Source of the DNA: Deltaproteobacteria bacterium
Lineage (GTDB): Bacteria > Desulfobacterota > Binatia > HRBIN30
Direction: 5' to 3'
DNA length: 64,000 bases
NCBI GenBank assembly: GCA_016200585.1
Contig: JACQEN010000195.1
Location: forward strand, 3,939 to 67,938
Shown: piece by piece, positions 12,713 to 64,000 of the stretch
Layout of the letters: each line of letters begins with the position of its first letter
Numbering within the stretch: the stretch's first letter is position 1
Made by a program: the position numbers and the translations under genes
Notes under the pieces: model-generated
Seen by the model: only the letters and a program-made list of their open reading frames with translations
Database searches by the model: none
Told to the model about the DNA's origin: nothing

Positions 12713-12911
12713 GCGGGGAGCCGTACCAGAGCTACCGCATTGCCTCAAACCGGCGATTCCTCGAATTTGCTTCGCGGCTCAAGTCGGAGAGCGCGCTACC
12801 AGGCTTGAGAATCGTGGACGATCCCGGCTTACCTTGCGACGCTGGAACCCTTGTCCGTGAGGCTCGAAGCGCCTGGCGCATGATTCGCTACTGATTCGTT
12901 GCAGCCATGGA

Positions 12912-14531: not shown

Positions 14532-14585
14532 GAGCGGCATGGGCGTGTCCGCGAGGCAATAGACATTCTTCAAAGGGAGGAAGCA

Positions 14586-18436: not shown

Positions 18437-18440
18437 GCCG

Positions 18441-18446
18441 AGGAGG
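18441..18446 (+). promoter_or_regulatory. Shine-Dalgarno (aggagg) for the molybdoenzyme alpha subunit
   Basis: Lies 7 nt upstream of ATG 18454 and just after the beta-subunit stop at 18436. Confidence 0.7.
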
Positions 18447-18453
18447 AATCGCC

Positions 18454-26693: not shown

Positions 26694-26987
26694 CGATTTA
26701 ACCCAGGTGCAAATTGAGAGCCGTCGCCGCGGTTCAAAGAGTCTGAGAAACTTCTTGAAGGAATTTCCGGATCGTGGGAGAGGCGGAAGCTTGCGAAACA
26801 TGAGTCTGTTCGCGCACTCTGGGATTCGTAGATTGGGTCGACAGCAAATTTCTCCAACTTCTCCGATGGTCAGAGTTGTTAGTTTCGTGTTCAGGCGAGT
26901 CCGTAGCGAGCAGCGCCGGTCGATTCACCAATATCCATTTGCGACCTGGCGTCGTGACGTGAAATAGTTTTGCTCGAGGACGAATCG

Positions 26988-34041: not shown

Positions 34042-36072
<2,031 letters not shown>

Positions 36073-36255
36073 TTATACAGCCCATGGCGGCTTCGGCAAT
36101 TGGCGCAAGGGCCTTGCGGCGGTTTCTTGTGGGTGGGGGGCGAGAGGCTCACGAGCTCAGGGCTCGGCAAAATGGAAATTGACATTCGCGCGGTTGTCAC
36201 GGAAGCTACCGCTCCACCGCTGGTGAACGGAACACGATACGTGCTGAGTCGGTTG

Positions 36256-39092: not shown

Positions 39093-42000
39093 GTGGTGCG
39101 GTCGTCGACAAATTCACAATTTCCGAAGCTGAGAGCCCTGCGATGGCAGACAGCTTCTGTGGTGGTTTCAATTGTGGGTTTGCTAAGCGGCTGTGGTGGG
39201 GGTGGGAGCGGCAGCACAACGAATGCTCCGGGCGGCTTGGCGCTTAGGGCTCTTTGGGAGCGATCTTCCACGGCGCATTCGTTGTTTCGGCCGAAAGCCT
39301 TCCAGGGCGGCTCGGAGCTTCCAGCCAGTGTATCGACGATCGTTGTGCGAGTCGGAGCTACGCAACGCGTCGTCGATCCGCATTGCGAAGCCGTGAACGG
39401 CGACTTCCCGTGTCGGCACGTCGAGATCGACGGATTGCAGCCAGGGCCGACGACCGTCCAGGTTGTCGGCTACGACGTGCCATTCGCAGCGGCAAGCACC
39501 ATCGATCAATTTGATCTTGCGCCTTCGTTCCGCAGCGATCGGCTCGATGTGATGATCCATGCCGGACAGGTGGCGGATGTGGAAGTTGATGTATTGGCTC
39601 AGCCGTTTGTTGCCTCGATCGACCCGTCTCCAGGCGCTACCGGGGTCTTCCGATCGACCCCGTTGAGCTTCCTTGTCGTCACCGCCGCCAACAGCATCAA
39701 CCTCAGTTCGATTCAAGTCGATGTCAATGGTTCTCGGGTCGTCGACGCCGGCGACCCGACGGATGGGGCACTGCTTGCCGATTGCAACGACTTGGATCCA
39801 GAAGCCCAACCGTGTACGCCCGGCGGCGCAAAGGGTGTGAGCGGCTTCTTGATCACCTACCAGCCGCTGGATGCATTTCCATCGACGACCCCGGTGACGG
39901 TTCGAGTGCAAGCGAGCGATTTGAACAGTCCGGCCCGCTCTGTCGACTTCTCGTATGCCTTTACGACCGGCACGCTTGCCGCAAGTCCGACACCGACGTG
40001 GACGCCGAGCTTGACTGCGACCCCGACCGCGACGCCGACGCGAACGGAAACGCCAACGCAGACACCGACGCCGACGGTTACGCCATCGAATACGCCGACC
40101 CCTTCCTTTACGGCGACGAGCACGGCTACAGAAGTACCGTCGGCGACGCCAACCAGCACGTCGACATTCACGCCGACGCAAACGGCTAGCCCGTCGGTGA
40201 CGCAAACGCCGACGGACACGCCCACCGACACACCGACCGAAACGCCGACGTTGACTCAGACGGCGACGGCGACGCCGACGGATACGCCGACCGCGACATC
40301 GACGGAGACGCCGACGTCTACAGCGACGAGCACGCCGACGGCGACCGCGACGTTGACCGAGACACCGGTCGCTTCGTTCACGCCGTCATCGACCGCGACG
40401 GAGACTGCGACGGCGACGGTGACCGATACCGCGACTGAAACCGCCACGCCGACGCCTTCGCAAACGCCGTCGTCGACGCCGACCAGCAGCGACACGCCGA
40501 CCGACACGCCGACGCCGACCAACACGGAAACACCGACGGAGACGCCGACCGTCACCGATACGCCGACCTTGACGGCGACCGAGACTCCGACGGAAACCCC
40601 GACGCAAACCGCGACGCCGACGGATACACCGACACCCACCGAAACATCGACGGCGACGGTGACGGCGACGCCAACCGAGACGCCAACGCCGACCGAAACC
40701 GCGACCGAAACGGCTACGCCGACTCAGACCGCGACCCCCAGCGACACACCGACGGTTACCGAAACACCCACGGAAACGGCGACGCCGACGGTGACCGACA
40801 CGCCGACCGAGACGCCCACCCCAAGTGAGACGCCGACGGCAACCGATACTGAGACAGTCACCGAAACACCGACCGAAACGGCAACACCGACACAGACGCC
40901 GACGGCAAGCGATACGCCTACGGCGACTCAGACATCCACCGATAGTCCCACGCCATCGGTGACGGCGACGGCGACGGAAACACCGACGGAGACGGCTACA
41001 GCGAGCGCCTCCGAAAGTCCGACCGCTACGCCAACCGAGACAGCGACGGAAACGCCGACCGACACCGCGACGGAGACGCCGACCGAGACCGTTACCGAGA
41101 CGCCGACAGAAACCGCTACGGAAACTGCGACGCCTACGGAAACGCCGACGGTCACGGCTACCGCAACGGCCACCGAAACCGCCACGGAGACGCCCACACC
41201 GACGATCACGGATACGCCCACCGAGACAGCGACCCCGAGCGTAACGGCAACGCCGACGGAGACGGCCACGCCGTCAGCGACGTCGACCGCAACGTCTACG
41301 GCCACGCCGACGGTGATCCCGCGCGCCTATGTAAGTAACGCCGGCAGCAACAGCGTGTCGGTAATCGATACGACCTCGAACACGGTGGTCAGCACCATTC
41401 CGGTTGGTACGAGCCCGTTCGGCGTTGCCGTAAGCGGTCAGGGGACGCGTGTCTATGTGACCAATCAATCCAGCAACAGTATGTCGATCATCGATGCCGG
41501 GGTGAACGCCGTCATCAATACGGTTGGCGTCGGACGCGGTCCAGTCGGATTGGCGGTGATGGCCACGGGAGACAAGGTGTACGTTGTGAACAAGATCGAC
41601 GCCAACGTGTCGGTTTACGACGTCAACAACGGGATCCTCGGCAATATCGCGGTCGGTAACTCGCCCGTCGGCATTGCGGTGAACCCAATTCAGGCAAGGG
41701 CCTATGTCGCCAACCAATTGAGTAACTCGATTTCGGTCATCGATACCAACTTCGATGTTGTCGTCGATACCTTGTCGATTGCCAGCCAGCCCTTCGGCAT
41801 CGCTGTCAGTCGCGACGGCGGTCGCTTCTACTTTACCAACCTCGGTAACAACAGCGTTGTCGAAGTGGAAACGACGACCAATACGGTTGTTCGCACCTAT
41901 CTGCTCGGCAACAACACGCGACCGTTTGGTGTTACGGTAAGCCCGGATGGAACACATGTGTACGCTGCTAATGTCCAGGGTAACTCGGTATCGGTTATCA

Positions 42001-42251
42001 ACACGGTGACGCACGCGCTGACCACGGTATCCCTCGGCACCGGTAGTGCTCCGTTCGGCGTTTCGGTGAATCCGGAAGGCACCTTGCTCTACGTTGCCAA
42101 CTCGAATCGAGGGAACGTGTCGGTGATCGACGCTTTGACGAACGCAGTCGTGCGCACGATTGCGGTTCAGTCGATGCCGACTGCGTTTGGCCAGTTCATT
42201 GAACCCGCAGCGGCCCAGTCGGGCGGTACGGGTTCGCTCATTGTGCCGTAA
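39093..42251 (+). CDS. Giant lipoprotein: lipobox, Ig-like region, about 440-aa acidic Thr/Pro stalk, C-terminal YVTN-type beta-propeller
   Basis: The signal and lipobox are [23 protein letters not shown] starts at 39093/39096 follow aggagg. Propeller repeats are [71 protein letters not shown] and [17 protein letters not shown]. The C-terminal end is MPTAFGQFI. Confidence 0.8.
39984..41313 (+). repeat. About 443-aa acidic Thr/Pro/Glu/Asp low-complexity stalk (degenerate [ED]TPT / TATPT units)
   Basis: e.g. [54 protein letters not shown]...[52 protein letters not shown]. The DNA is dominated by acg/acc-ccg-acN-gaN codon strings. Confidence 0.9.
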
Positions 42252-51562: not shown

Positions 51563-51638
51563 CGTTCCCTTTTTGCGAAACAAACGAATGCGACGCAATC
51601 CCTTGGGTTTCACGCGGCGTTTCGGTAGGAGTCGACGC

Positions 51639-52469
51639 ATGCCGCGGGTTCGAGTGAGCGACATCGAGTTGAATCACGAAATCGCCGGTGAAGGCACAGC
51701 GCTGGTTCTGCTGCACGGACTGGGTGGCGATCTGCACGTTTGGGACGAAGATGTGGCGGTGTTTTCCAGGCATCATCGTGTGTTGAGACCCGACCTGCGG
51801 GGGTTCGGGGCTTCCGACAAGCCGCCGGGTCCGTATTCGCCTTCGAAGTTTGCCGCCGACCTTGCCGCCTTGCTCGATCACTGCGCCATCGACACGGCGC
51901 ACGTCTTGGGGATCTCGATGGGCGGTGTGATCGCCCAGCGCTTTGCCCTGGATCACCCGGCCCGTGTCCGTTCCCTGGTCTTGGTGAGTACATCAAGCGA
52001 GGTCGGGGCCAATGCGATTGCGGCGTGGCAGCGCCTGGCTGACAAGATTGAGCGCGAAGGCTTCGACAGCCGCACGGCCGACGCCCGACGATCGGTTTCC
52101 CCTGTTTTCGCTCAACAGCATCCCGAGGTTGTAGCGGAGCTTGGCAGACGCAACGCCTCCTGCGATCCACATGGTTATGCGGCAGCCGCCCGAGCGGTGG
52201 CCGATTACAACTGGACAGCGGAATTAGCGACAGTGACTGTCCCGGTGCTGATCCTGCAAGGTTTGGACGATCAGCTGACCCCACCCGGAGGATCGGTCAA
52301 GATGAGCCGGGTACTTCCGCAGGCGCGGCTGTTGATGGTTGCCGCAGCTGGACACAATTTACCGCTCGAGCAACCTGAGATCTTCCGCAATAGCGTCCTG
52401 GCGTTTCTTGGCGGCGTCGATATGACCTTGACCGGCGTGATTCGCGACCTCAGGCGCGTTCGCCGGTGA
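51639..52469 (+). CDS. Alpha/beta-fold hydrolase (3-oxoadipate enol-lactonase-like)
   Basis: The start is MPRVRVSDIELNHEIAGEG. Motifs are LLHGLGGD and the nucleophile elbow VLGISMGG. Confidence 0.85.
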   Translation: MPRVRVSDIELNHEIAGEGTALVLLHGLGGDLHVWDEDVAVFSRHHRVLRPDLRGFGASDKPPGPYSPSKFAADLAALLDHCAIDTAHVLGISMGGVIAQRFALDHPARVRSLVLVSTSSEVGANAIAAWQRLADKIEREGFDSRTADARRSVSPVFAQQHPEVVAELGRRNASCDPHGYAAAARAVADYNWTAELATVTVPVLILQGLDDQLTPPGGSVKMSRVLPQARLLMVAAAGHNLPLEQPEIFRNSVLAFLGGVDMTLTGVIRDLRRVRR

Positions 52470-52543: not shown

Positions 52544-53002
52544 ATGAAGCGACGAAATCTCATTGAAATGACCGAAGACGAACGCCGCGTGTTTCTGGCG
52601 GACGCCCGTACCATTACTTTGTCGACCATCGATCCGCGTGGCTACCCGCACTCGGTCGCTATGTGGTACGTGATGGACGGCGATTGTACGCTGATGACGA
52701 CCTACGCAAAGTCGCAGAAGACGAGAAACATCGAGCGCAATTCAAAGGTAGGGTTGATGGCCGAAACCGGGACGACCTACGATACGTTGAAGGGGGTGTT
52801 GATTCGAGGTCGCGCCGAGCTGATCCGCGAAGAAGAGAAATGCCTGGAAGTCCTCAAACGAGTACATGCAAAGATGCTGGGCTCGTTTCCCGAAGGGATC
52901 GATGAGGCGCTCCGAGCCCAGGCCCGCAAACGGGTTGTCGTCCGCGTGGTACCCGAACGCATCAGCAGCTGGGACCATTCAAAGCTAGGCGGAGTCTACT
53001 GA
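52544..53002 (+). CDS. Pyridoxamine 5'-phosphate oxidase-family (PPOX class, possibly F420/FMN-dependent) protein
   Basis: 152 aa. LADARTITLSTIDPRGYPHSVAMWY..KTRNIERNSKVGLM..VLIRGRAELI. Confidence 0.75.
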   Translation: MKRRNLIEMTEDERRVFLADARTITLSTIDPRGYPHSVAMWYVMDGDCTLMTTYAKSQKTRNIERNSKVGLMAETGTTYDTLKGVLIRGRAELIREEEKCLEVLKRVHAKMLGSFPEGIDEALRAQARKRVVVRVVPERISSWDHSKLGGVY

Positions 53003-53084: not shown

Positions 53085-53113
53085 TTGCAATTGCGCACCT
53101 GCCGGCGCATACA
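53085..53113 (+). promoter_or_regulatory. Candidate sigma70-type promoter, TTGCAA-N17-CATACA (weak -10)
   Basis: Read directly, about 50 nt upstream of the first stalk gene. The -10 matches only 3 of 6 positions, so confidence is low. Confidence 0.2.
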
Positions 53114-53162
53114 CGGTCGCGCGGTGTGTCGAGAAGGCGCAACGCACGGAGCCGTGGGCGTT

Positions 53163-55451
53163 GTGACAGCGAAAAGAGTAGGAATGGTACTCAGCATTGC
53201 GCTCGGCGCGGTGCTCACTCTGACCGGGGCAGGGTTGGCGTTGCAAGGCGATGCCGACTGCAACGGCACGGTCGATAGCAGCGATATCGCGGCCACGGTT
53301 GTGGCAATCTTCGAGGGATCGAGTTGTGCCGGTGGCGATGCCAACCTCGATGGTGCGCTGACGGCTGCCGATGTGAGCGCTGCGATTCGGATGGTCGGTT
53401 CGTCGCGGGCCACTGCTACGCCGACCGAGACGCCAACAGACACTCCACGCACCGAAGAGTCGCCAAGTCCGAGTGTCTCAGAAACTCCAGGTCCGTCGAC
53501 GACCGCCTCGGCGACTCCGAGCAGCAGCGCCACTGGCACCAAGGATTCAACCCAAACGCTGACCGCCACTGCGTCGCGTACGCCGACGATCGTTCCGACG
53601 ATCACTGCAACCGCTTCGAGCTCGGCCACGGCAAGTTCGACGCCCACCCTGGTGTCGTCCGCGACGCCGACGCAGTCGCCAAGTCCTTCTCCAACCGAGA
53701 GTCCGACGGATACCCCTAGTGCAACGGAATCGATACCGCCATCTGCTTCGCCAACCACTACCGCCACAGTGCCACCGACACAGAGTTCGACGGCAACTGT
53801 TTCGCCGAGTTTCACGCCGACCATTACCGTTACGTTTACGGCGAGCCGGACCGCGACGGTCACGAGAACCCTGACTTCGTCGCTGACCCCCACCGTTACC
53901 GGAACGCCTTCGTATACGATACCGCCGACGCGTACTCGCACGGAGACGCCGACGAAATCACCGACGCGTACGTGGAGCGCGACAACCACGGCGACAGGCA
54001 CGGCCACGCAGAGCCCGACCGAAACGGGGACTGCGACACGAACCGGAACGGCGACTCAAACACCGACGCGGACCGGCACTCCGACCAAAACGGCGACCCC
54101 GACGATGACGGTGACGCGCACGGCGACAGGCTCGCCAACGGAGACGGCAACCAGCACCCAGACGTCAACGCGCACGCCAACGGCAACCGAGACACCGTCA
54201 AGCACGCCGACCGTGACGACAACACCCAGTCCGACGCGGACGGTGACGGCGAGTCGGACGCCAACGTCGACTGCGACGTCGCCCGGATCTCCCACGGCGA
54301 CCGGTACACGTACGCCTACTTCGACTGGGACAGCAAGTGCCTCCCCGACGGCATCCTCAACCGCCACCCGTTCGTATACTCCGTCGCCGACTTTCACCGG
54401 CACGGCGACGGTTCCGGCGACGCGCACCGCCACCTTGACACGGTCGCCAACGCTGACTGGGACGCCGACGCGCACGGCAACGGCAAGCTCGACGCTGCAG
54501 CCGACGCTGACCGCGACGGTGACGCAAACCCCGACCGGAAGCCGCACTCCAACGGGTACTCAGACCGCCACGCCGTCACGGACAGCGACGCGCACGCCGA
54601 CGTCATCGCCCACGCTCAGCGCGACGCCAAGCTTTACGGGAACAGGAACCCGCACCCCGACGCGGACGGCGACCTTGACGGCGACCGCAACGGCAACGTT
54701 CACAACAACGCCGAGTGCTACGCTGACGCGAACCCCGACGCCGACGCCGACGCCGACACCCTCGCCGACGAAGACCGCCACACGTACCGCGACCGCTACG
54801 GCAACGGCGACGCAACCGGCGATTGGGCCGCACGTGCTGACGCTAGCGGTTGTCACCAGTTTCGATGGCTGCGTGTTCTGTTGTGAACAGAGTTGCGCGC
54901 GTACTCCTACACCAACTCCGGCCTTCGACGGACTGGGGCGGCGAATTTTCACGACGGCGAGCGGGCAGTTCGTACTCGTCGTTGAAGGTGTGGCGGGGGC
55001 TAGCGCGCGGGCGCCCGGGACGTCGCTGCAGCCGTCCTCATCCGACAACCGCCCCGATCTGTGGATCGAGAGTACCAGACCGTTGGGAAATGGCAGCACG
55101 CAAGTTTGCGATACGGGGCCGCCCTCTGCCGGTGGTGGCGGAGTTCCCGCCGTCAGCCCGCCGAGCTTTTCGTCGGGCATCCAGAGCGTTACCGACGCGC
55201 TCAACGATTTTGCCTGCCGCTTCGACCCGTCGGTCGGCGCGGCTGCTCCGTGTACGGTTTTGGATTCCACACGCGAGCCGCGGTTGATCAACTCGTCTGC
55301 TAGCGTGCAATTCTGTGACTTCGTGGCAACCACGGCGACGTTCCCGCTGGGTGACAGTGTGGTCTCGGTGGCGCTGAGAGACGTTGCCGGCAATATCGGT
55401 CCGACAGCGCAGGTGGTGGTGCACGTTGTGACGCCGACGCCCAAGCCGTGA
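53163..55451 (+). CDS. Secreted 'dockerin-like anchor / about 470-aa Thr-Pro stalk / Cys-rich head' protein, paralog A
   Basis: ORF track 53067..55451. The likely start is GTG 53163 (MTAKRVGMVLSIALGAVLTLTGAGLALQ) or ATG 53184. See the module, stalk and head sub-features. Confidence 0.8.
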   Translation: MTAKRVGMVLSIALGAVLTLTGAGLALQGDADCNGTVDSSDIAATVVAIFEGSSCAGGDANLDGALTAADVSAAIRMVGSSRATATPTETPTDTPRTEESPSPSVSETPGPSTTASATPSSSATGTKDSTQTLTATASRTPTIVPTITATASSSATASSTPTLVSSATPTQSPSPSPTESPTDTPSATESIPPSASPTTTATVPPTQSSTATVSPSFTPTITVTFTASRTATVTRTLTSSLTPTVTGTPSYTIPPTRTRTETPTKSPTRTWSATTTATGTATQSPTETGTATRTGTATQTPTRTGTPTKTATPTMTVTRTATGSPTETATSTQTSTRTPTATETPSSTPTVTTTPSPTRTVTASRTPTSTATSPGSPTATGTRTPTSTGTASASPTASSTATRSYTPSPTFTGTATVPATRTATLTRSPTLTGTPTRTATASSTLQPTLTATVTQTPTGSRTPTGTQTATPSRTATRTPTSSPTLSATPSFTGTGTRTPTRTATLTATATATFTTTPSATLTRTPTPTPTPTPSPTKTATRTATATATATQPAIGPHVLTLAVVTSFDGCVFCCEQSCARTPTPTPAFDGLGRRIFTTASGQFVLVVEGVAGASARAPGTSLQPSSSDNRPDLWIESTRPLGNGSTQVCDTGPPSAGGGGVPAVSPPSFSSGIQSVTDALNDFACRFDPSVGAAAPCTVLDSTREPRLINSSASVQFCDFVATTATFPLGDSVVSVALRDVAGNIGPTAQVVVHVVTPTPKP
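53247..53396 (+). other. Dockerin-like module (paralog A)
   Basis: GDADCNGTVDSSDIAATVVAIFEGSSCAGGDANLDGALTAADVSAAIRMV. Confidence 0.55.
53409..54817 (+). repeat. About 470-aa Thr/Pro/Ser/Ala/Arg low-complexity stalk (paralog A)
   Basis: e.g. [84 protein letters not shown]. Confidence 0.9.
54818..55448 (+). other. Conserved Cys-rich C-terminal head domain (paralog A), unrecognised family
   Basis: AIGPHVLTLAVVTSFDGCVFCCEQSC..GRRIFTTASGQFVLVVEG..RPDLWIESTRPLGNGSTQVCDTGPPSAGGGGVPAVSPPSFS..TDALNDFACRFDP..PCTVLDSTREPRL..QFCDF..FPLGDSVVSVALRDVAGNIGPTAQVVVHV. Confidence 0.7.
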
Positions 55452-58054
55452 ATCGCTCGCCTTTCAGACTCCTGACGGTCGGGATCGCACTGACGGCATT
55501 GCTGGCATCGGCTTGTCGCGCTCAGGCGGCGATTTCCGCGGATCTCAACTGCGATGGTGTAGTGGACAGCGCCGACCTAGCTGTTGCGGTTGCTGCGCTA
55601 TTTGAACCCACGGTAGGCGGTTGTGTCTCCACCGACGTCAACCTTGATGAGCGCCTCAGTGCGGCCGACGTGATATCGTTGATCCGTTCCGCATCTTTTC
55701 TTGCGCCAACTGCGACCGCCACGGATCTACCGTCGCCGACGTTGAGCCTGACTCCATCCCCCGAGGCGACTCGTACATCCGAGCCCACCGATAGCCCGAC
55801 GCCGAGTGTCACGATCTCCCCGACACCCTCGCCACTGCCGAGCTTGTCCCCGTCGGCCACCGTGACCTTCACGGCATCGTTGACCAAGCCGGCGACTCGT
55901 TCACCCACCTCAACGAGAACCTCGGCCGAGGTCCTCGCCAGTCCAACATTCACCGCCGAAGAGATCCCGTCCTCACCTTCGGTGACGCCGTCGGAGGTCG
56001 GCGGCACGGCTACTCCGTCGACCGAGCCCAGTGCCGAAACCACGTCGACCCCTTCGCCGACGGGTACGGAGTCGCCGAGTGCGACCGCCGTGGAAACGGA
56101 AACCGCGACGGCGACACCTTCCCTTTCGCCGCCCCCGACTGCAACCGCAACGGTGACCTCGAGCTGGTCGGCGACCCCGGCGCCAACCGATACGGCTACG
56201 CCGACGCCGTCCATGACCCTGAGCCCGACAATGAGCCCGACAATGAGTCCGACTGCGTCGACCTCCGCGACGCCTTCCCCGATTTTGTCTCCGACACCGT
56301 CGGGCACACCTTCGCGCACGCCATCCAAAACCAGGTCAATGACTCCTACGTCGAGTTTCACGCACACGCCGTCTGCGACGCCGACAACGTCCGCGACTCG
56401 GACATCGACGGCGACCAGCAGTCCGACGGTGACACGAACCCCGACCGAGACCCCGACGTCTACGCTCACGGCGACGCCGACAAGCACGGAAACGCCGTCG
56501 CCAACGTACAGTCCGACACGCACGGCCTCTCCCTCGCGCACACCGACTTCGAGTGCTTCGCCGAGCCACACCCCACTGCCGACGATGACTCCGACCCCGA
56601 GCTCGACCGAAACCGGCACTCGAACCGCGACGCGGACGCCAACCGCGAGCCTGACGCCGACGAGCACGATCACTCGCACCCCGACGCGCACGCCGCTGCC
56701 GAGCTTCACGCCGACGCCGACGGCCACACCGACATGGAGCCCCAGTCCGACCGTTACACCTACAGGGACGCGGTTGCCAAGTCGAACCCCGAGCCCGAGC
56801 CCGACGGGAACCGCGAGCGTCACTCCCACGGCGACGGTGACGGCTACTTCGACGCCGACTCCCTCCGCTACTTCCACACCCACGGTGTCGCCGACTCCAA
56901 CAAACACGCCAACGTTCACGGCCACGCCGACAATCACGGCGACGGCCACGCTGACTGCGACGCCGACCGTAACCCCGACGATTACGATTACGCCAACGGC
57001 GACTCCAACATCGACGGTGACCGCTACGGATTCGCCGACGGCGACCGCGACGGAAACTCCAACGCTGACTCCGTCGCCGACGGAAACCGCTACAGCGACG
57101 CAGACCCCCTCGAGAACAGGTACGTCAACCGCAACGGGATCGCCGACAAGAACGCCGACGCGAACGGCGACGGCCACCTTCACGCCGACGCTGACGCCAA
57201 CGAACACCGCCTCGTTTACCCCTACGGCTACTCGGACGCCGACTCGAACTGGCACGCCGACTCCGACCGGGACGTCCACACCCACGGCGACGACGACATT
57301 CACCCCGACCATCACGCCCACTCCGACCGGTACCCGGAGCGCCACCCCGACTCCTAGTGTGACGCCCAGCGCAACAGCGTCGTCGACGCCGACCGCCTCG
57401 GCGACGACGACGCCAACCGGACAGGGACCGCAAGTTACGTTCTTGGGCGTGCTGACTCGTTTCGACGGATGCGCGTTTTGTTGCGAGGCGAGTTGTGTCA
57501 ACGCGCCAACGCCGATCCCGGAATACGATGCTGAAGGTAGGCGCGTTTACTACGCGTTGTCGGGGCAATTCGTGGTCGTGGTGGAAGCGCGCCCAGGCCT
57601 CAGCGGTGCGGCGGTGGCGACATCACTGCAAGCGGTCCCGCCGGACTACCGACCGGACATTTGGATCGAGAGCTCGCGCGATCTGGGCAACGGCAGTGCG
57701 AAGGTTTGTGATACCGGACCGGCGAATTCGGGCGGTGGCGGCGTGCCCGGAGTCGATCCACCGAATTTCTCCCTCGACCTGCCCGCCGTGACGAATGCCT
57801 TGGTTGATTTCGGCTGCCGCTTCAATCCAGGTATCAGCGCCGCCAGTCCCTGCACCATCGTTGACGCCACCCGTGAGCCGCGGCTGCTTACGGCCGCGAC
57901 GGCTCAATTCTGTGACTTCGTTTCCAGCACGAGCACCTTCCCAAGCGGAGAATCCGTTCTGACGGTCGCCTTGCGCGATACGGTGGGAAATATCGGACCC
58001 ACGGCGCAGATCGTTGTGCGCGTCGCCACACCGACAGCCACACCGACACCCTGA
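55448..58054 (+). CDS. Secreted 'dockerin-like anchor / about 570-aa Thr-Pro stalk / Cys-rich head' protein, paralog B
   Basis: The GTG start overlaps the paralog A stop (GTGA, 55448..55451). The signal is MNRSPFRLLTVGIALTALLASACRAQA. Whether it is cut by SPase I or is a non-canonical lipobox is unclear. Confidence 0.8.
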   Translation: MNRSPFRLLTVGIALTALLASACRAQAAISADLNCDGVVDSADLAVAVAALFEPTVGGCVSTDVNLDERLSAADVISLIRSASFLAPTATATDLPSPTLSLTPSPEATRTSEPTDSPTPSVTISPTPSPLPSLSPSATVTFTASLTKPATRSPTSTRTSAEVLASPTFTAEEIPSSPSVTPSEVGGTATPSTEPSAETTSTPSPTGTESPSATAVETETATATPSLSPPPTATATVTSSWSATPAPTDTATPTPSMTLSPTMSPTMSPTASTSATPSPILSPTPSGTPSRTPSKTRSMTPTSSFTHTPSATPTTSATRTSTATSSPTVTRTPTETPTSTLTATPTSTETPSPTYSPTRTASPSRTPTSSASPSHTPLPTMTPTPSSTETGTRTATRTPTASLTPTSTITRTPTRTPLPSFTPTPTATPTWSPSPTVTPTGTRLPSRTPSPSPTGTASVTPTATVTATSTPTPSATSTPTVSPTPTNTPTFTATPTITATATLTATPTVTPTITITPTATPTSTVTATDSPTATATETPTLTPSPTETATATQTPSRTGTSTATGSPTRTPTRTATATFTPTLTPTNTASFTPTATRTPTRTGTPTPTGTSTPTATTTFTPTITPTPTGTRSATPTPSVTPSATASSTPTASATTTPTGQGPQVTFLGVLTRFDGCAFCCEASCVNAPTPIPEYDAEGRRVYYALSGQFVVVVEARPGLSGAAVATSLQAVPPDYRPDIWIESSRDLGNGSAKVCDTGPANSGGGGVPGVDPPNFSLDLPAVTNALVDFGCRFNPGISAASPCTIVDATREPRLLTAATAQFCDFVSSTSTFPSGESVLTVALRDTVGNIGPTAQIVVRVATPTATPTP
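55538..55690 (+). other. Dockerin-like module (paralog B)
   Basis: ADLNCDGVVDSADLAVAVAALFEPTVGGCVSTDVNLDERLSAADVISLIRS. Confidence 0.55.
55705..57417 (+). repeat. About 570-aa Thr/Pro/Ser low-complexity stalk (paralog B)
   Basis: e.g. TPSATPTTSATRTSTATSSPTVTRTPTETPTSTLTATPTSTETPSPTYSPTRTASPSRTPTSSASPSHTPLPTMTPTPSSTETGTRTATRTPTASLTPTSTITRTPTRTP. Confidence 0.9.
57418..58051 (+). other. Conserved Cys-rich C-terminal head domain (paralog B)
   Basis: GQGPQVTFLGVLTRFDGCAFCCEASC..GRRVYYALSGQFVVVVEA..RPDIWIESSRDLGNGSAKVCDTGPANSGGGGVPGVDPPNFS..TNALVDFGCRFNP..PCTIVDATREPRL..QFCDF..FPSGESVLTVALRDTVGNIGPTAQIVVRV. Confidence 0.7.
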
Positions 58055-58185
58055 ACCTTCCATCAACGATTGCGAAAATCGCGGCTAAAATTGCAAATTC
58101 TGGTTGTTGCAAACAGAAGAACCGGCAGGCATTGAAGGACGCGATCTCAACGCACCACAATCGCAGTCAGGTCCAAACCTATCGC

Positions 58186-61113
58186 ATGAGCTGCCGCCTA
58201 CGATCGCTGAGGATGCTCTATCTCTCGTTCGCCGTATTGGTGGTGTGCGCACTAGCGCGAGGCGGCTTCGCGCAACCGCTTCCCGGCGATGCCAACTGCG
58301 ATGGCTCGATCGATGTGGCGGACGCTGAAGCGGCGGCTCTGGCGATCTTTGAAGGATCAAACTGTGGGGCAAGCGACGCCAACGCAGATGGGAGTGCGAG
58401 TGCCGCGGATGTCGTTGCCGTGTTGCGATTGTTCGTATCGGCGCCAACTCCTACATCGACACTCGCGCTGCCGACGGCATCGGAAAGTCCAATTTCGAGC
58501 TCGACGCCGACGCTCCCGCCACCGTCACCCACGGCGACCCTACAGATTGATCCAATCGAATCGCCGTCAAGCACCATGACGCCAACGATCGTCCCCTCGG
58601 ACACGCCCACGGCGACTCCCGTGGTCACAACCGTGGTACCGAGAACCAGCACGCCGTCCTCAAGCCCGGGGTTGACCGAGACGAAGCCGCCAACTGCTTT
58701 GCCGTCTGCGACCACGACCGCGACAGCCGATTCGACCCCAATCTCGACGCCGGAAACAACCGCGAGCGCAACATCGACGGTGCCAATTCCGACAGCAACT
58801 GCAGACGAGACTCCGACGACCGAGGGGTCGGCAACCAGCACGCCGACGGTCGCGTCGCCGTCGGCAACCGAAACGCCGTTCCCCTCGCCAACACTAGCCG
58901 AATCGGCGTCGCCTTCGGTAACGTCCAGTGAGACCTCGACGCCGACGGGCACCGAGAGTCAGCGCCCGACCGCGACAAGCTCTCCGACAGCGAGCGCGCC
59001 AACCCGAACGACATCGGTTACGCGGGCGGCAACGCTGACCGCTACGGCGACGGTGACGCCATCCGAGAGTGCCAGTCCGACGCTGAGCCGCACCTCGACG
59101 AACACCGCTACTCCGACTCGATCACCCTCACCGAGCTTCACCCTGCCGCCACCGCGAACGATGACGCCGACGCGTTCTCCCAGTGCGACTGCCACCGAGA
59201 GCCCATCGCCGACTGAGTCGCCATCGGCAACAGAAACATCGACGGGGACGCCGACTCCCTCGCCGACACCGAGCCGCTCGCCGACTCATACGACAACGGA
59301 ATCCCCCACGGCGACGGAGACCACGACGGGGACGCCGACACTGACTTGGACGATTCTTCCAAGTGTGTCGCCCACGAGAACCCTGACGGCGACGCAATCT
59401 TCGACTCCTGCGCCGTCGGGAACGTCCACGCCTTCGTCTACCGCGACGACGAGCAGCACCCGAACTGCCAGTGCCACGCGCACGGGGACCTTGCCACCGA
59501 GCGCGACGCCGACCAGAACTTCGACGAACACGTCGACGAGCACGCCGACCTCGACGTCAACGCGGACGATACCCCCGACACGCAGCGCCACTCCCAGCCG
59601 CACGCCAACGGAAACCGCCACTGCGAGCGCGACACGGACGCAGTCCTCGACGCCCACGCAGACCGCCTTAGCGACGGATACGGCAAGTGCGACGCCGACA
59701 CGCACGCCAACCGGCACGCCTACCGATAGGCCGAGTGCGACGTGGACGCCGACCAGCTCTGCGACTCGTACGCCGACTGATTCACCCAGCTCTACACCGT
59801 CTCGGAGCCCGACGATCTCGCCGACCGCGTCGCCTACGTTGCAACCGTCCTCGACGACAACATCCAGCCTTACGCCAACCGACACGGCGACGGAAACCCC
59901 TTCACGCAGTCCGTCTGCGACGGCGACGGCGACTTCCTCGCCGTCGCAAACGAGCACCCAAACGCCGAAGCCGACGGCGACACCTTCGAGATCACCCACG
60001 GTGACACCAACCGAGACGTGGACCCGAACTCCCTCGGTTACTCCCAGTGAGACGCCCACGGGCACCAGTACCGCGACGCAGACAGCGACGCGAACGCCGA
60101 CAGCAAGCTCCTCGCAAACTTCAACGAGGACAGCGACGCTGACGCCGACGGAGACGGCGACGCCAACCGATACGCCGACTTGGACTCCTACTCGCACGCC
60201 GACGGCGACGCCGACCTATACTTCGACGCGAACAGCGACACTGACGCCGTCGCCGTCGGCGACGCCTACGGATGTCCCGACGCAGACGCCGACGCGTACA
60301 CCTACGTCGACGCCCACCGAAACTCCGACGCGTACCGCGGCGGCGACAGGGACGCCGACGCGGACACCCACGGAAACGCCGTCACCGACTTCGACGGCAA
60401 GTCCAACGCTGTCGCGGACGGCGACGTTTACGCCGAATGCGACGCCGACCCGTACACCCACCTCTTCGGCGATTGGTCCTCAGGTCGCCTTCTTTGGCAT
60501 CGTTCCCGCGGATGGATGTTATGCATGCAACGATCCCGGTTGCTTGTGCGGAACAACGCCGACTCCGACGCCGATGCTCGATGGCAATGGGAGGCCGGTG
60601 TTCCTCACCGCCAATGCCGGCGGTTTTTTGCTCGTGCTCGAGGCACGACCGGGTACGAATGGCGCTTCGGTGGGCACATCGGTTCCGCCACCAACACCAG
60701 GGCAAGGTGTGCGTCCAGATCTGCAGATCCAAGCATCGAGCGCCCTGGGAAACGGAAGCGCTACGATTTGTGACACGCAGCGCATCGTCGATGGCGGTGG
60801 CGGCGTTCCTGGGTTCGATCCACCGGATTTCAGTTCGTTGTCTTCGATTACCGATGCGTTGATCGATTTCGCATGCCGTTTTGATCCGCACTCGCCGTCG
60901 GTGCCGTGTACTCTCTCTGGTGATGGCAATGACGGTACAATTACAGCGAATCTTCCGATTGGTTCCGAACAGTTTTGCTACCGCACAGAGATCAACACGG
61001 CCTTCCCGTACGGCGACACTGTCTTGACGGCGCAGGTGCGTGATTCGAGTGCGGCGCACAACATCGGACCCACTGCGCAGATCGTTATCCGTCGTGTAAC
61101 GCCGCATCCATAG
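58186..61113 (+). CDS. Secreted 'dockerin-like anchor / about 675-aa Thr-Pro-Ser stalk / Cys-rich head' protein, paralog C
   Basis: ORF track 58132..61113. ATG 58186 gives MSCRLRSLRMLYLSFAVLVVCALARGGFAQP. Confidence 0.8.
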   Translation: MSCRLRSLRMLYLSFAVLVVCALARGGFAQPLPGDANCDGSIDVADAEAAALAIFEGSNCGASDANADGSASAADVVAVLRLFVSAPTPTSTLALPTASESPISSSTPTLPPPSPTATLQIDPIESPSSTMTPTIVPSDTPTATPVVTTVVPRTSTPSSSPGLTETKPPTALPSATTTATADSTPISTPETTASATSTVPIPTATADETPTTEGSATSTPTVASPSATETPFPSPTLAESASPSVTSSETSTPTGTESQRPTATSSPTASAPTRTTSVTRAATLTATATVTPSESASPTLSRTSTNTATPTRSPSPSFTLPPPRTMTPTRSPSATATESPSPTESPSATETSTGTPTPSPTPSRSPTHTTTESPTATETTTGTPTLTWTILPSVSPTRTLTATQSSTPAPSGTSTPSSTATTSSTRTASATRTGTLPPSATPTRTSTNTSTSTPTSTSTRTIPPTRSATPSRTPTETATASATRTQSSTPTQTALATDTASATPTRTPTGTPTDRPSATWTPTSSATRTPTDSPSSTPSRSPTISPTASPTLQPSSTTTSSLTPTDTATETPSRSPSATATATSSPSQTSTQTPKPTATPSRSPTVTPTETWTRTPSVTPSETPTGTSTATQTATRTPTASSSQTSTRTATLTPTETATPTDTPTWTPTRTPTATPTYTSTRTATLTPSPSATPTDVPTQTPTRTPTSTPTETPTRTAAATGTPTRTPTETPSPTSTASPTLSRTATFTPNATPTRTPTSSAIGPQVAFFGIVPADGCYACNDPGCLCGTTPTPTPMLDGNGRPVFLTANAGGFLLVLEARPGTNGASVGTSVPPPTPGQGVRPDLQIQASSALGNGSATICDTQRIVDGGGGVPGFDPPDFSSLSSITDALIDFACRFDPHSPSVPCTLSGDGNDGTITANLPIGSEQFCYRTEINTAFPYGDTVLTAQVRDSSAAHNIGPTAQIVIRRVTPHP
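58286..58434 (+). other. Dockerin-like module (paralog C)
   Basis: GDANCDGSIDVADAEAAALAIFEGSNCGASDANADGSASAADVVAVLRLF. Confidence 0.55.
58438..60462 (+). repeat. About 675-aa Thr/Pro/Ser low-complexity stalk (paralog C)
   Basis: e.g. SPSPTESPSATETSTGTPTPSPTPSRSPTHTTTESPTATETTTGTPTLTW...TRTPTATPTYTSTRTATLTPSPSATPTDVPTQTPTRTPTSTPTETPTRTAAATGTPTRTPTETPSPTSTASPT. Confidence 0.9.
60463..61110 (+). other. Conserved Cys-rich C-terminal head domain (paralog C, most divergent)
   Basis: AIGPQVAFFGIVPADGCYACNDPGCLC..GRPVFLTANAGGFLLVLEA..RPDLQIQASSALGNGSATICDT..DGGGGVPGFDPPDFS..TDALIDFACRFDP..PCTLSGDG..EQFCYR..FPYGDTVLTAQVRDSSAAHNIGPTAQIVIRRV. Confidence 0.7.
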
Positions 61114-61148
61114 TAGGCGTAATCAAGCCACAAATCTTGCGTTTCTGC

Positions 61149-61177
61149 TTGACTGGATAGGCCTTCTGCGGCATAGA
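61149..61177 (+). promoter_or_regulatory. Candidate sigma70-type promoter, TTGACT-N17-CATAGA (weak -10)
   Basis: Read directly, about 80 nt upstream of ATG 61258. It has the same TTGnnn-N17-CATAnA layout as 53085..53113. Confidence 0.2.
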
Positions 61178-61244
61178 TGGCGCGCGTCCTGCCCGGAGTC
61201 GTGTATGGTGCGGCTCAGCGTGAGCGAGACGCTTGAGTTACCGA

Positions 61245-61251
61245 AAGGAGG
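61245..61251 (+). promoter_or_regulatory. Shine-Dalgarno (aaggagg)
   Basis: Lies 6 nt upstream of ATG 61258. Confidence 0.7.
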
Positions 61252-61257
61252 CGTGCG

Positions 61258-62547
61258 ATGCGAGAGTTGATGCGGAGTCCTTGGCTGCCCGTGCTGGGGG
61301 TGCTGCTGGCAGCGACCGGGATCGTTGGGGTCGCGGGGCAGGCTAGGGCCGATGTGACGACGGACGACGCCGGGTCGATTGTAATCTACCCGAAGGTGGT
61401 GTCGGATGGCACGCGGGACACGTTGATTCAACTGAGCAACCGTTCGAACATGCCGGTGTTTGTGCACTGCTTCTACGTGAACACGGCCGGTCGATGCAGT
61501 GCGACGACGGAGCAACGATGCCGACTCGATGGCGACTGTCCCTCGGGTGAATCCTGCGCGCGCACCTGTGACGCAAACGACTTTGATGTCCTTCTGACTG
61601 CGCAGCAGCCAACCATGTGGCGTGCATCCACTGGTCGCTTGGCGTCATTGACGCCGGGGCCCTGCCGAATCGGGCAAACTTGTGGTTGCTCCATCGACGT
61701 GGCAAGTGGCCAGCAAATTTGCCCGGGGCTTGAAGCCGCACCAAGCAACTCACCGTACACGCCTGCGGTTGGCGGCGAATTCGAGGGCGAACTGAAATGC
61801 TACCAGACCGATGTCAACGGTTTTCCGATTCCCGGCAACGCAATAAAGGGCACGGCGATTCTTGAGAACGTTTCGAATGGTCAGATCAGCGAATACAACG
61901 CTCTGACCGTTTCGGCGAACGCCGATCCAGTTGTTGGCGTCAACCAGGGGCAAGATCTGCAGCTCAACTATTCTGGGGGCGGAGCGGGCGAATACAACTA
62001 TTGTCCGTCGAACCTGGTGTTCACACACTATGGCGACCAGGCGGTCGATGCATTTACGAACGCGACGGTTAGCACAGAGATCACACTGGTCCCGTGTACG
62101 GAGTTGATCGAAGAACGCGCCCCGACGCCGGTGACAGTGAGTTTTCTGGGCTTCAATGAATTCGAACAGCGCTTCAGCGCCGATGCGATCTCCTTCGATT
62201 GTTACTTCAGCCGCAGTTTGGCGGATATCCCGAGTGAGGGGCAGCCGTTGTTCGTCGCTGGTGCTGGACAATGGTGGAAAACGCGAATTACGCCGTCGGC
62301 TTCGAACATTTGTTTGACGGGAAGCAGTCGCGGTCTAACATGTGCGTCCGACGCGGATTGTCCAGGGTTCTTGACTAGTCCCGAAAACAACAGTCTGGGA
62401 TGCCGGCCTGCACCGGGAGTGCTCGGGGTTGTGGAGGAGTTCCACGCAATCGGCGGGCTCGCGGTTGGCACGGCAGCGAACAACATGCACGTCGAAGGTC
62501 AGCGGAGCGGATTCGGGGACGTCATTGTGGTGCCGTCGCTCCAATAG
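61258..62547 (+). CDS. Secreted Cys-rich protein, unrecognised family ('PKV / HCFY / FNEFEQRFS' family), paralog 1
   Basis: The signal is LPVLGVLLAATGIVGVAGQARA. Then come GSIVIYPKVVSDGTRDTLIQLSNRSNMPVFVHCFYVN and the Cys-rich inserts CSATTEQRCRLDGDCPSGESCARTC and CLTGSSRGLTCASDADCPG. Other conserved segments are ITLVPC and FLGFNEFEQRFS. Length is 429 aa. Confidence 0.75.
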   Translation: MRELMRSPWLPVLGVLLAATGIVGVAGQARADVTTDDAGSIVIYPKVVSDGTRDTLIQLSNRSNMPVFVHCFYVNTAGRCSATTEQRCRLDGDCPSGESCARTCDANDFDVLLTAQQPTMWRASTGRLASLTPGPCRIGQTCGCSIDVASGQQICPGLEAAPSNSPYTPAVGGEFEGELKCYQTDVNGFPIPGNAIKGTAILENVSNGQISEYNALTVSANADPVVGVNQGQDLQLNYSGGGAGEYNYCPSNLVFTHYGDQAVDAFTNATVSTEITLVPCTELIEERAPTPVTVSFLGFNEFEQRFSADAISFDCYFSRSLADIPSEGQPLFVAGAGQWWKTRITPSASNICLTGSSRGLTCASDADCPGFLTSPENNSLGCRPAPGVLGVVEEFHAIGGLAVGTAANNMHVEGQRSGFGDVIVVPSLQ

Positions 62548-62564
62548 TCGAGGGGACGGGAGTC

Positions 62565-63812
62565 ATGGCGACAATGAAGAGTAGGGAAAGGAGTCGGACC
62601 ATGGTGCAGACGAGACGAGTTGCCGCAGCGGTTGTGGCAGCAGTGGCAATGGCGTCGAGTGCCCAGGCGATCAGCACGAGTGACAGGCCAGCGGCAATTC
62701 AGGTTTGGCCAAAGGTCGTGGTGGATTCCGCGGGTCGATTTACGCAGGGGGTGCCCGTCAACACGCTCATCACGCTCAGTAACACGGATCATCGTGGCGA
62801 GAAGCGGGCCCATTGCTTTTACACCAACGCGAATGGGCACTGCGCCAACAACTCTGCTCAGGTCTGTCGTAGCGCAACTGACTGCACGGCCTCGGAATGT
62901 ACTCCGGGCTGGGCCGAGATGGATTTTGACGTCTATCTAACACTTGAGCAACCGCTTGGTTGGTACGCCAGTGATGGCCTCTCGCGTGGCGCGTTTCCAA
63001 AGGAAGGTCCATTCTTCTGCAACGCGCCGCTCACCCAGGTTCCGTGTACGACCGACGCGGTCTGCGGCGGCCTCGGGTGCAATGTTGGACAGAGCAATCT
63101 TGGGAGCGGTATTCCTCCGGTTCCTGAGGACCCATTTATTGGGACCCTGACTTGTATTCAGTTCACGATTGGGAGCCAGTCGAGTCCGGACCAGACGGTT
63201 GACCGCAATCGCCTCTACGGAGAGGCGACGATTCTCCAAGGGGGGCCGGTAATCGGCGCCGCCCCATTGCCTGTTGACGTAGCGAAATACAATGCCGTTG
63301 GTTTCAGGGGCCAGGGTGTAAATTTTGATCCGACAAATACCTTCCAGCTCGGCGGCGCCGGTGCTGAATACGACGGTTGTGCCTCGACCCTGATTCTCAG
63401 TCATCTGTTCGACGGTGCCATTGATCCAATATCGAACACCCGCCCGGCTTCGACAGATCTAACGCTTGTTCCGTGTGGCAACAATTTCTCGAGCCAGATC
63501 CCAGGTCGAACGACAGCCCAATTTCTGGTGTTCAATGAGTTCGAGCAAAGGTTTTCGACGAGCCGCTCCATTGATTGCCTGTTTGATGGTGCAATTTCGA
63601 CAATCGATACGCGCAACACGGCACGATCGATCTTCAGCGCTGGCGTTGCAGGTACGATTTCTGGTCAAACTCGGATTCGTGGCGTTGGTGGAAACGCAAC
63701 GGGTTATGGTTTGATCGGTACCGCGCAACTTTCCCTTGGATCGGGTTCGAGCGCCGCCTACAATCTGCACCAGCAAGGGGTTGGCGGCACGGACTTCATC
63801 ATCATTCCCTGA
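62565..63812 (+). CDS. Secreted Cys-rich protein, same unrecognised family, paralog 2
   Basis: ORF track 62400..63812. ATG 62565 after gaggggacgggag gives MATMKSRERSRTMVQTRRVAAAVVAAVAMASSAQA. Then come AAIQVWPKVVVDS..NTLITLSNTDHRGEKRAHCFYTN, HCANNSAQVCRSATDCTASEC, LTLVPC and FLVFNEFEQRFS. Confidence 0.75.
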   Translation: MATMKSRERSRTMVQTRRVAAAVVAAVAMASSAQAISTSDRPAAIQVWPKVVVDSAGRFTQGVPVNTLITLSNTDHRGEKRAHCFYTNANGHCANNSAQVCRSATDCTASECTPGWAEMDFDVYLTLEQPLGWYASDGLSRGAFPKEGPFFCNAPLTQVPCTTDAVCGGLGCNVGQSNLGSGIPPVPEDPFIGTLTCIQFTIGSQSSPDQTVDRNRLYGEATILQGGPVIGAAPLPVDVAKYNAVGFRGQGVNFDPTNTFQLGGAGAEYDGCASTLILSHLFDGAIDPISNTRPASTDLTLVPCGNNFSSQIPGRTTAQFLVFNEFEQRFSTSRSIDCLFDGAISTIDTRNTARSIFSAGVAGTISGQTRIRGVGGNATGYGLIGTAQLSLGSGSSAAYNLHQQGVGGTDFIIIP

Positions 63813-63861
63813 CGTAGCAAGCAGGATCGAATCACAAGGTTTTCTTCGAACCTGCGTAACC

Positions 63862-63869
63862 GAAGGAGG
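63862..63869 (+). promoter_or_regulatory. Shine-Dalgarno (gaaggagg)
   Basis: Lies 5 nt upstream of ATG 63875. Confidence 0.7.
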
Positions 63870-63874
63870 CAGAC

Positions 63875-64000
63875 ATGAGGGCGAGACAGGGCGGCTGGCT
63901 CTTAGCGGTCGGAATAGGAAGTTTGCTGCTGAGTGCTGTAACGGCACGAGCAGACGTAGGTGGGGACCGGCCGGGGTCGATCCTGATCTTTCCGAAGGTT
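63875..64000 (+). CDS. Secreted protein, third paralog of the 'PKV' family; partial, continues beyond the window
   Basis: My own translation gives MRARQGGWLLAVGIGSLLLSAVTARADVGGDRPGSILIFPKV. This has the same signal + GSI[VL]I[YF]PKV opening as paralog 1. Confidence 0.6.
   Translation, partial: MRARQGGWLLAVGIGSLLLSAVTARADVGGDRPGSILIFPKV

Follow-up and report, generated by a model that had tools for sequence, protein, structure and literature searches.

A conserved gene cassette for stalked HEAD and cysteine-rich PKV proteins suggests an undescribed cell-surface or envelope assembly in the Binatia

Uncultured lineages often have conserved gene clusters for secreted proteins annotated as hypothetical, and the Binatia (UBP10), which are globally distributed, are uncultured and known from genomes only. 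Among the described systems to which such a cluster can be compared are the cohesin-dockerin systems of bacteria and archaea, both cellulosomal and non-cellulosomal, and the SlaA/SlaB surface layer of the Sulfolobales, a two-component structure with a stalk and a canopy. The published analysis of the Binatia deals with metabolism, and a genomic survey (PMC8262859) makes no mention of envelope or secreted proteins. The window analysed here is a stretch of 64,000 nucleotides (nt) from a member of this lineage (assembly GCA_016200585.1, contig JACQEN010000195.1, positions 3,939 to 67,938 of the forward strand). Its ORF (open reading frame) listing, read directly, shows on the plus strand, between 53.1 and 64.0 kb, three genes for long stalked proteins (HEAD; H1-H3) followed by three co-oriented genes for cysteine-rich proteins (PKV; K1-K3). 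The HEAD proteins resemble dockerin-bearing modular secreted proteins in having a Pro/Thr-rich linker followed by a globular module, and similar dockerin-like modules occur on unrelated proteins of the window. We report that HEAD and PKV genes form a conserved cassette, which suggests an undescribed cell-surface or envelope assembly. We found no literature on Binatia with dockerin, and none on this cassette.

Using hidden Markov models on six-frame ORFs, we mapped both families in 59 PKV loci from species-representative genomes, several long contigs and 23 metagenome HEAD loci. The PKV arrays belong to two classes. In class I arrays the first gene (PKV-A) is of a long, K1-like type, and at 31/31 non-redundant loci it is preceded, on the same strand, by a HEAD gene whose end lies 132-509 nt away. 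These loci, from about 30 assemblies, are every long-type array with upstream sequence; three further arrays lacking the upstream flank, two of them long-type, were left out of the count. The HEAD gene directly upstream of PKV-A is always of the H3 type, at all 31 assessable loci, despite flanks that vary between PTE, luciferase-like and abhydrolase/PNPOx genes, and with PKV-A identities among these loci going down to about 33%. The original prediction had read the two families as functionally linked partners and proposed gene-neighbourhood conservation as a check, and this came out in its favour, as the families co-occur as a co-oriented cassette at these loci, far outside the source genome. 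Complete class I loci have exactly four PKV genes (about 425, 410, 350 and 415 amino acids, aa) with short gaps between them (medians 42, 57 and 47 nt), and at 26 loci a gene for a CheY-like response regulator (PF00072) lies 3' of the array, frequently followed by a DUF1232 gene or by a second HEAD gene. The window holds the first 2.1 genes of such an array; going by the related complete loci, K3 should be followed, beyond the window, by PKV-D and by a gene for a CheY-like regulator.

The presence of a HEAD neighbour is correlated with a cysteine-rich insertion in PKV-A, which in K1 has the form C-x9-C-x5-C-x13-C. With at least 4 cysteines (4, 8 or 12), it is present in 29/31 HEAD-adjacent proteins versus 0/16 scorable first genes of HEAD-less arrays, and it is the obvious candidate for a contact site with HEAD. 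In the PKV-A orthologues of loci L016, L021, L027, L029, L031 and L036, the cysteines of the insertion come in multiples of four; the insertion looks like a small repeatable disulfide module, with a pattern like that of another insertion close to the N-terminus of K1 (aa 80-100, C-x7-C-x5-C-x6-C).

The class II arrays (about 29 loci, 2-6 PKV genes) have no HEAD gene in their available flank (up to 10 kb), and a dockerin-like match lies nearby at one locus only. They follow dprA, topA, trmFO, glnE and a class IV aminotransferase gene, and precede dnaG. We considered these conserved flanks as a functional clue and rejected them, for they are housekeeping genes or antisense shadow ORFs. Both array classes are found in at least 12 assemblies, and this multiplicity, together with the position of the class II arrays among housekeeping genes, fits a core, constitutive PKV component. 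Class II loci bear the numbers L038-L065, and those of L042, L053, L057 and L061 are expanded to six genes.

In the phylogenetic tree of the PKV proteins, array positions 1 and 3 are separated from positions 2 and 4 as two deep clades, in both array classes. From this alternation we propose that an ancestral alpha/beta pair was duplicated to give an alpha-beta-alpha'-beta' array, which, judging from the tree, is ancient and fixed in its order across the lineage, with no recent amplification. The HEAD tree has three groups, namely the "up1" group (H3 type), the H1/H2-type clade, whose genes lie further upstream of PKV or elsewhere in the genome, and a "downstream" clade; HEAD orthologues are thus grouped by their position relative to the PKV array. 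H1 falls in the H1/H2-type clade, and H3 clusters with the HEAD genes that stand immediately 5' of PKV-A elsewhere. The tandem amplification proposed in the original prediction is not supported as a recent event: the PKV paralogues are old orthologous groups, four genes in fixed order, and the HEAD paralogues fall into position-specific orthologous clades.

Judging from gene order, the cassette is made of two juxtaposed modules. Genes for an alpha/beta-hydrolase (at about 18 loci) and a PNPOx-family protein (at about 16 loci) are the conserved upstream neighbours of the H1/H2-type HEAD genes, and in several genomes (L066, L071 and L074) this module stands apart from H3-PKV. In L066 it lies on another contig, as it does in FWPU01 (L074 on one contig, L002/L090 on another). 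The alpha/beta-hydrolase, PNPOx, H1/H2, H3 and PKV genes are contiguous in the window and at no fewer than 10 other loci, which include L012, L015, L016, L020, L021, L025, L067, L069, L080 and L081. The view of one contiguous locus, from which the analysis started, gives way to this two-module layout, since the H1/H2 genes can live apart and a promoter-like element parts H3 from K1. In L066, four unannotated genes (333, 416, 109 and 460 aa; 10950-15314) follow the H1/H2-type genes; they are kept only in L071, a close relative, and the 416-aa product has a weak DUF4785_3rd match.

The element in the H3-K1 spacer is sigma-70-like (GCTTGACT-N16-GCATA) and reads as a TTGACT -35 box, a spacer of 17 nt and a CATAGA/CATACA -10 box. 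It has one match in the window and 0 in 100 shuffles, and 11 non-redundant related loci have one copy each, always in the HEAD-to-PKV-A spacer; a simple promoter scan did not pick it up. From this conserved element between H3 and K1 we propose that the PKV array is probably transcribed separately, from a promoter of its own; on this reading there is no need for a single 11 kb transcript. The leader that follows is conserved in alignments and places a strong GAAAGGAGG ribosome-binding site ahead of PKV-A. Its hairpin shows weak covariation (-0.44 kcal/mol, compensatory changes in 5/16 pairs), a search of the region including the leader gave no Rfam family match, and the leader could be mRNA-stabilising or regulatory. 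Terminator-like sites occur at chance level (10 found versus 10.7 expected).

PKV and HEAD show no relation to one another (hhalign probability 0.2%). Searches of Pfam-A, NCBIfam, PHROGs, PADLOC and PDB sequences (profiles included) gave no significant match for PKV or for the HEAD domain; the Pfam-A search covered the window proteins as well as 81 PKV and 59 HEAD family members. In this respect the earlier claim of two unrelated novel families stands, and, as far as these libraries reach, the families and the organisation of the cassette are new and accommodated by no known family or system. The family-library searches returned otherwise sub-threshold noise from cysteine-rich mini-domains (WAP, Dickkopf, nodulin), and EF-hand or dockerin signals in the N-terminal modules only. 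Both families are large, with at least 874 PKV homologues among 8,000 scored candidates, and with 638 cluster representatives (50% identity) for HEAD, of which 370 have E <= 1e-30. The homologues are named Candidatus Binatia, and the cassette occurs mainly in metagenome-assembled genomes (MAGs) labelled Binatia; the source MAG of the window has the NCBI label "Deltaproteobacteria bacterium" and locus tags in HY270_. PKV loci were also seen in MAGs with other labels, namely Myxococcales, Margulisiibacteriota, Thermodesulfobacteriota, Desulfurellales, Desulfosarcina, Patescibacteria, Gemmatimonadota and Terriglobales (L010, L025, L031, L032, L035, L051, L054, L058, L063 and L064), with full class I synteny in L010, L025, L031 and L035; these contigs are probably mislabelled or mis-binned.

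K1 and K2 are 34% identical, and a GSIxIxPKV strand, also present in the N-terminus of K3, comes after the signal peptide in all three. PKV proteins have 7-19 cysteines each, at conserved positions, and invariant polar residues that include Q117, W121, E303 and D421. AlphaFold2 models built on family alignments gave confident folds: K1 is all-beta (predicted local distance difference test, pLDDT, 89.2; predicted template modelling score, pTM, 0.87), and the H2 head is a beta-sandwich with one helix (pLDDT 92.9, pTM 0.89). A Foldseek comparison of K1 with 350,542 PDB chains produced nothing convincing among the 50 matches listed, the long alignments of which have a root-mean-square deviation (rmsd) of about 20 Å, a query-normalised template modelling score (TM-score) of at most 0.22 and at most 10% identity. 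These matches include transglutaminase and arrestin chains, i.e., multi-domain beta-sandwich proteins, and one K1 domain is similar to TM1070 (1nc7) from Thermotoga, which is in the PDB under its locus name only. The viral library BFVD gave only generic beta-sandwich noise for K1, and the H2 head found no convincing fold in the PDB (best match, the p53 core, E = 3e-3, TM-score 0.27). All these resemblances are generic to beta-sandwiches, with no indication of homology or shared function.

H1, H2 and H3 are built on a common plan: a Sec-type signal peptide, a Ca-loop module of about 50 aa, a linker of 480-690 aa that is 65-68% Thr/Pro/Ser, and a C-terminal HEAD domain of about 190 aa. Pairwise identity is 46-61% between the HEAD domains and 47% between the N-terminal dockerin-like regions. 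The latter contain a conserved Cys pair and two duplicated 12-residue DxNxDG-type Ca-binding loops (DxNxDGxxxxxD), each with a helix after it, as in type I dockerins, where they lie within about 60-70 aa; the pattern is kept in all three paralogues, and the loop pair of H1, read from the sequence, is DADCNGTVDSSD...DANLDGALTAAD. The three modules do not reach the Dockerin_1 (PF00404) gathering score of 22.9 bits (H1, 11.5; H2, 18.9; H3, 17.1 bits), and certain HEAD relatives are above it (24.7-28.9 bits). At their N-terminus HEAD relatives also have a lipobox or other dockerin/EF-hand types, with the C-terminal head unchanged, as if the N-terminus served as an anchor and the head as the functional part. 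Two to four tandem HEAD domains occur in P0218-P0222, and in P0311 HEAD is fused to a beta-helix/PMP repeat.

Could these long Thr/Pro/Ser ORFs be spurious, opened by chance in GC-rich low-complexity DNA, so that the short head genes alone are real? The NCBI annotation of H2 has 231 aa only, with a start inside the linker, the antisense frames are likewise open over the linkers, and database HEAD homologues are often short calls that begin in the linker or head (many of "~200 aa", with V as first residue). Against this, about 45 orthologues in related loci keep one ORF of 440-1060 codons from the dockerin-like motif through to the head, with linkers of 150-700 aa (56-69% Thr/Pro/Ser), and full-length database members have the same architecture (signal peptide, dockerin/EF-hand module or lipobox, linker, head). 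As the DNA contains short degenerate tandem repeats only, assembly collapse is unlikely too. We rejected both artefact readings, which are hardly credible given this conserved single frame: the sequences indicate that the long ORFs are real single genes, and the VGV-rich antisense ORFs are their shadows. Automatic gene calling seems to go wrong in a systematic way where linkers are rich in Thr/Pro/Ser, yielding these antisense ORFs. A strong AT skew (+0.35) with negative GC skew, like that over the HEAD linkers, is seen at 40001-42000 in a YNCE/NHL beta-propeller ORF (39093-42251, plus strand), which may contain another long low-complexity linker.

We propose, tentatively and as a little short of an even chance, that the PKV proteins of the cassette make up a lineage-specific, disulfide-stabilised heteromeric assembly, either part of the envelope or extracellular, with the H3-type stalked HEAD protein as its dedicated accessory. 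The first module, placed after the alpha/beta-hydrolase and PNPOx genes, would encode the H1/H2-type stalked proteins; the second would be the H3-type gene, then the separately promoted four-gene PKV operon, with the CheY-like gene next in relatives. The PKV proteins, presumably exported by Sec and folded as disulfide-rich tandem beta-sandwiches, would form alpha/beta heteromers that build an abundant structure, core to the lineage. The HEAD proteins would be tethered by their N-terminus, through the dockerin-like Ca module (a lipobox takes its place in some relatives), with a long, probably extended Thr/Pro/Ser stalk bearing the beta-sandwich head at its tip, and the H3-type protein of the HEAD-linked array may touch the 4-Cys insertion of PKV-A. 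In favour of this proposal are the constant place of H3-type genes, the HEAD clades that follow position, the insertion restricted to HEAD-linked arrays, the invariant promoter-like motif and ribosome-binding site before PKV-A, and orphan families with confident all-beta models, conserved cysteines and short gaps within the array.

Several points weigh on the other side. Synteny inside one bacterial class may partly be shared descent. The correlation of the insertion with HEAD adjacency comes from phylogenetically non-independent loci and fails at two of them (L020 and L025), and with a separate promoter the HEAD and PKV genes could be expressed independently. That PKV proteins form heteromers, that these have a structural role, where in or on the cell they stand, and that HEAD touches PKV are all steps that we infer. 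HEAD and PKV might be independent secreted proteins whose adjacency was inherited, and which are perhaps only co-regulated. In that case PKV arrays would act alone, as the class II arrays without any HEAD neighbour would do, and H1/H2-type HEAD genes without nearby PKV (L066, L071, L074 and L087), the promoter-like element between H3 and K1, and the supply of nearly all loci by one lineage are in keeping with it. We regard such a purely inherited neighbourhood as unlikely, if by no means negligible, for the H3 type stays directly 5' of PKV-A over deep divergence and changing flanks, and the insertion tracks HEAD adjacency. No anchor, polymerisation motif or S-layer/pilin signature can be recognised in the PKV proteins, and their modelled beta-sandwich fold is equally compatible with soluble periplasmic or extracellular proteins acting in binding, as chaperones or as enzymes, for instance by sequestering a ligand or metal. 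The two-beta-sandwich architecture, the weak matches to transglutaminase and arrestin chains, the many conserved cysteines and the invariant polar residues would suit such a role, which seems to us rather improbable, as Pfam, NCBIfam and PDB returned no catalytic family signature and four fixed alpha/beta paralogues, present more than once per genome, are more in keeping with a structure of many subunits than with an enzyme.

Another possibility, put forward in the original prediction, is that PKV proteins are the missing cohesin-like receptors, non-canonical ones which would scaffold HEAD, RHS, PPC (pre-peptidase C-terminal) and GH39-like proteins on the surface via their dockerin-like modules. 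It is worth noting that the lineage is rich in PKV arrays as well as in dockerin-like modules (six modules in the window), that the H3 gene, with its module, always adjoins PKV-A, and that the lipobox replacing the module in HEAD relatives suggests that the module is an anchor. Conversely, Cohesin (PF00963) matched neither K1 nor K2 at E<=1 nor any of 81 PKV members at E<=0.01, and no cohesin, a nine-stranded jelly-roll of about 140 aa, was among the 50 PDB matches listed by Foldseek for K1. Moreover, the class II arrays lack dockerin-bearing neighbours, bar the one locus, and the H1-H3 modules are below the Dockerin_1 cut-off. The idea is unsupported rather than refuted, and we consider it very unlikely. 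Certain metagenomic relatives (P0293, P0309 and P0342) comprise a signal peptide, HEAD, a Thr/Pro linker, CarboxypepD_reg, Dockerin_1 and a C-terminal domain; in P0293 Dockerin_1 scores 28.9 bits and the C-terminal domain is weakly Cohesin-like (17.1 bits, below the cut-off). This layout hints that conventional cohesin partners may exist in related organisms, which would also speak against PKV in that role. A homologue search with the cohesin-like C-terminus of P0293 gave one match, and in a tblastn comparison of the segment with all the loci retrieved, no cohesin-like domain turned up. It is similarly a long shot that PKV alpha/beta heteromers build a new kind of surface lattice or fibre, specific to the Binatia, which also serves as a cohesin-independent docking and surface-display platform for dockerin-like and HEAD proteins, with the 4-Cys insertion docking H3.

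The coordinates of the cassette and of its upstream neighbours are collected below. The gaps from H1 to K3 are, in order, -4, 131, 144, 17 and 62 nt, and plausible Sec signal peptides, read from the sequence, open all six genes. These gaps and the run of six co-oriented secreted-protein genes are as the original prediction had them, and its statement that no enzyme, transporter or regulator is interspersed also holds, for the genes H1 to K3 inside the window. The start of H1 is uncertain: its ORF is open from 53067, GTG 53164 or ATG 53185 are likely starts, and 53085 is not necessarily one.

Table 1. Positions of the cassette genes, their regulatory elements and the two upstream neighbours in the window.
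Feature	Position	Strand	Remarks
alpha/beta-hydrolase gene	51639..52424 (tblastn-matched region; ORF 51573-52469)	+	64% identity to L066 Abhydrolase_1 gene
PNPOx-family gene	52544..53002	+	70% identity to L066 PNPOx_N gene
H1	53164..55451	+	signal peptide, Ca-loop pair ~53250-53400, linker ~480 aa, HEAD domain 54837-55451
H2	55448..58054	+	architecture as H1; HEAD domain 57428-58054; start overlaps H1 stop by 4 nt
H3	58186..61113	+	architecture as H1; linker ~690 aa; HEAD domain 60475-61113; "up1" PKV-adjacent type
promoter-like element	61147..61175	+	H3-K1 spacer
leader, ~85 nt	61176..61257	+	small hairpin and GAAAGGAGG ribosome-binding site
K1 = PKV-A (alpha type, array position 1)	61258..62547	+	secreted, all-beta, Cys-rich
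4-Cys insertion in K1 (~aa 350-384)	62305..62409	+	specific to HEAD-linked PKV-A proteins
K2 = PKV-B (beta type, array position 2)	62565..63812	+	ORF listing, alignment, tree
K3 = PKV-C N-terminus (alpha' type, array position 3)	63875..64000, past window end	+	GSIxIxPKV motif

The six dockerin-like modules counted in the window by the original prediction are indeed there, on H1-H3 and on three other proteins. The RHS protein (970-6267, minus strand, 1765 aa; RHS-repeat/YD-shell, DUF6531, TIG) combines a dockerin-like module at its N-terminus with a Thr/Pro/Ser linker, and may be a polymorphic toxin using the same tethering module. The GH39-like protein (10919-12748, minus strand) also has its module at the N-terminus, and the PPC protein (35905-38982, plus strand) scores 23.4 bits with Dockerin_1, above the Pfam cut-off; from these two proteins it appears that unrelated secreted proteins of the genome use dockerin-like tethering. 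A glycyl-radical enzyme (PFL-like + Gly_radical; 24255-26801, minus strand) and a large molybdopterin oxidoreductase (17818-21222, plus strand) are apparently unrelated to the cassette.

The cassette defines two large orphan families with confident predicted folds unmatched in the PDB, in an organisation fixed across a lineage, and its analysis corrects a systematic mis-annotation of genes with Thr/Pro/Ser linkers. Should the products of the PKV array indeed build a structure at the surface, this would add a new component to the envelope, and it could explain how the many dockerin-like proteins of the lineage are displayed. The alpha/beta pairs, the 4-Cys insertion and the H3 head are targets for structural and metaproteomic work.

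Compared with known systems, the locus shares with the cohesin-dockerin systems the pair of 12-residue DxNxDG-type loops with helices, at the N-terminus of the HEAD proteins. It differs from them in that the modules of H1-H3 are N-terminal, have a conserved Cys pair and score 11.5-18.9 bits versus 22.9, in that the locus showed neither a cohesin nor a scaffoldin with cohesin repeats, and in that PKV has no cohesin signal in sequence or fold. Transglutaminase chains and arrestins are all-beta like PKV, and differ from it in every measure of whole-protein similarity (TM-score, rmsd and identity, as given above). On TM1070 (PDB 1nc7) from Thermotoga, one PKV domain superposes with a target-normalised TM-score of 0.71 and a probability of 1.0. 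With the SlaA/SlaB surface layer there is no similarity of sequence or fold; the bacterium here probably has a diderm envelope, the place of one large canopy protein would be taken by four PKV subunits, each of about 400 aa, and there is no transmembrane or SLH anchor. The likeness is purely architectural: in both cases beta-sandwich-rich secreted proteins, here PKV, would be encoded beside a long Ser/Thr-rich stalk, here HEAD, by lineage-specific core genes, with a strong ribosome-binding site and a leader.

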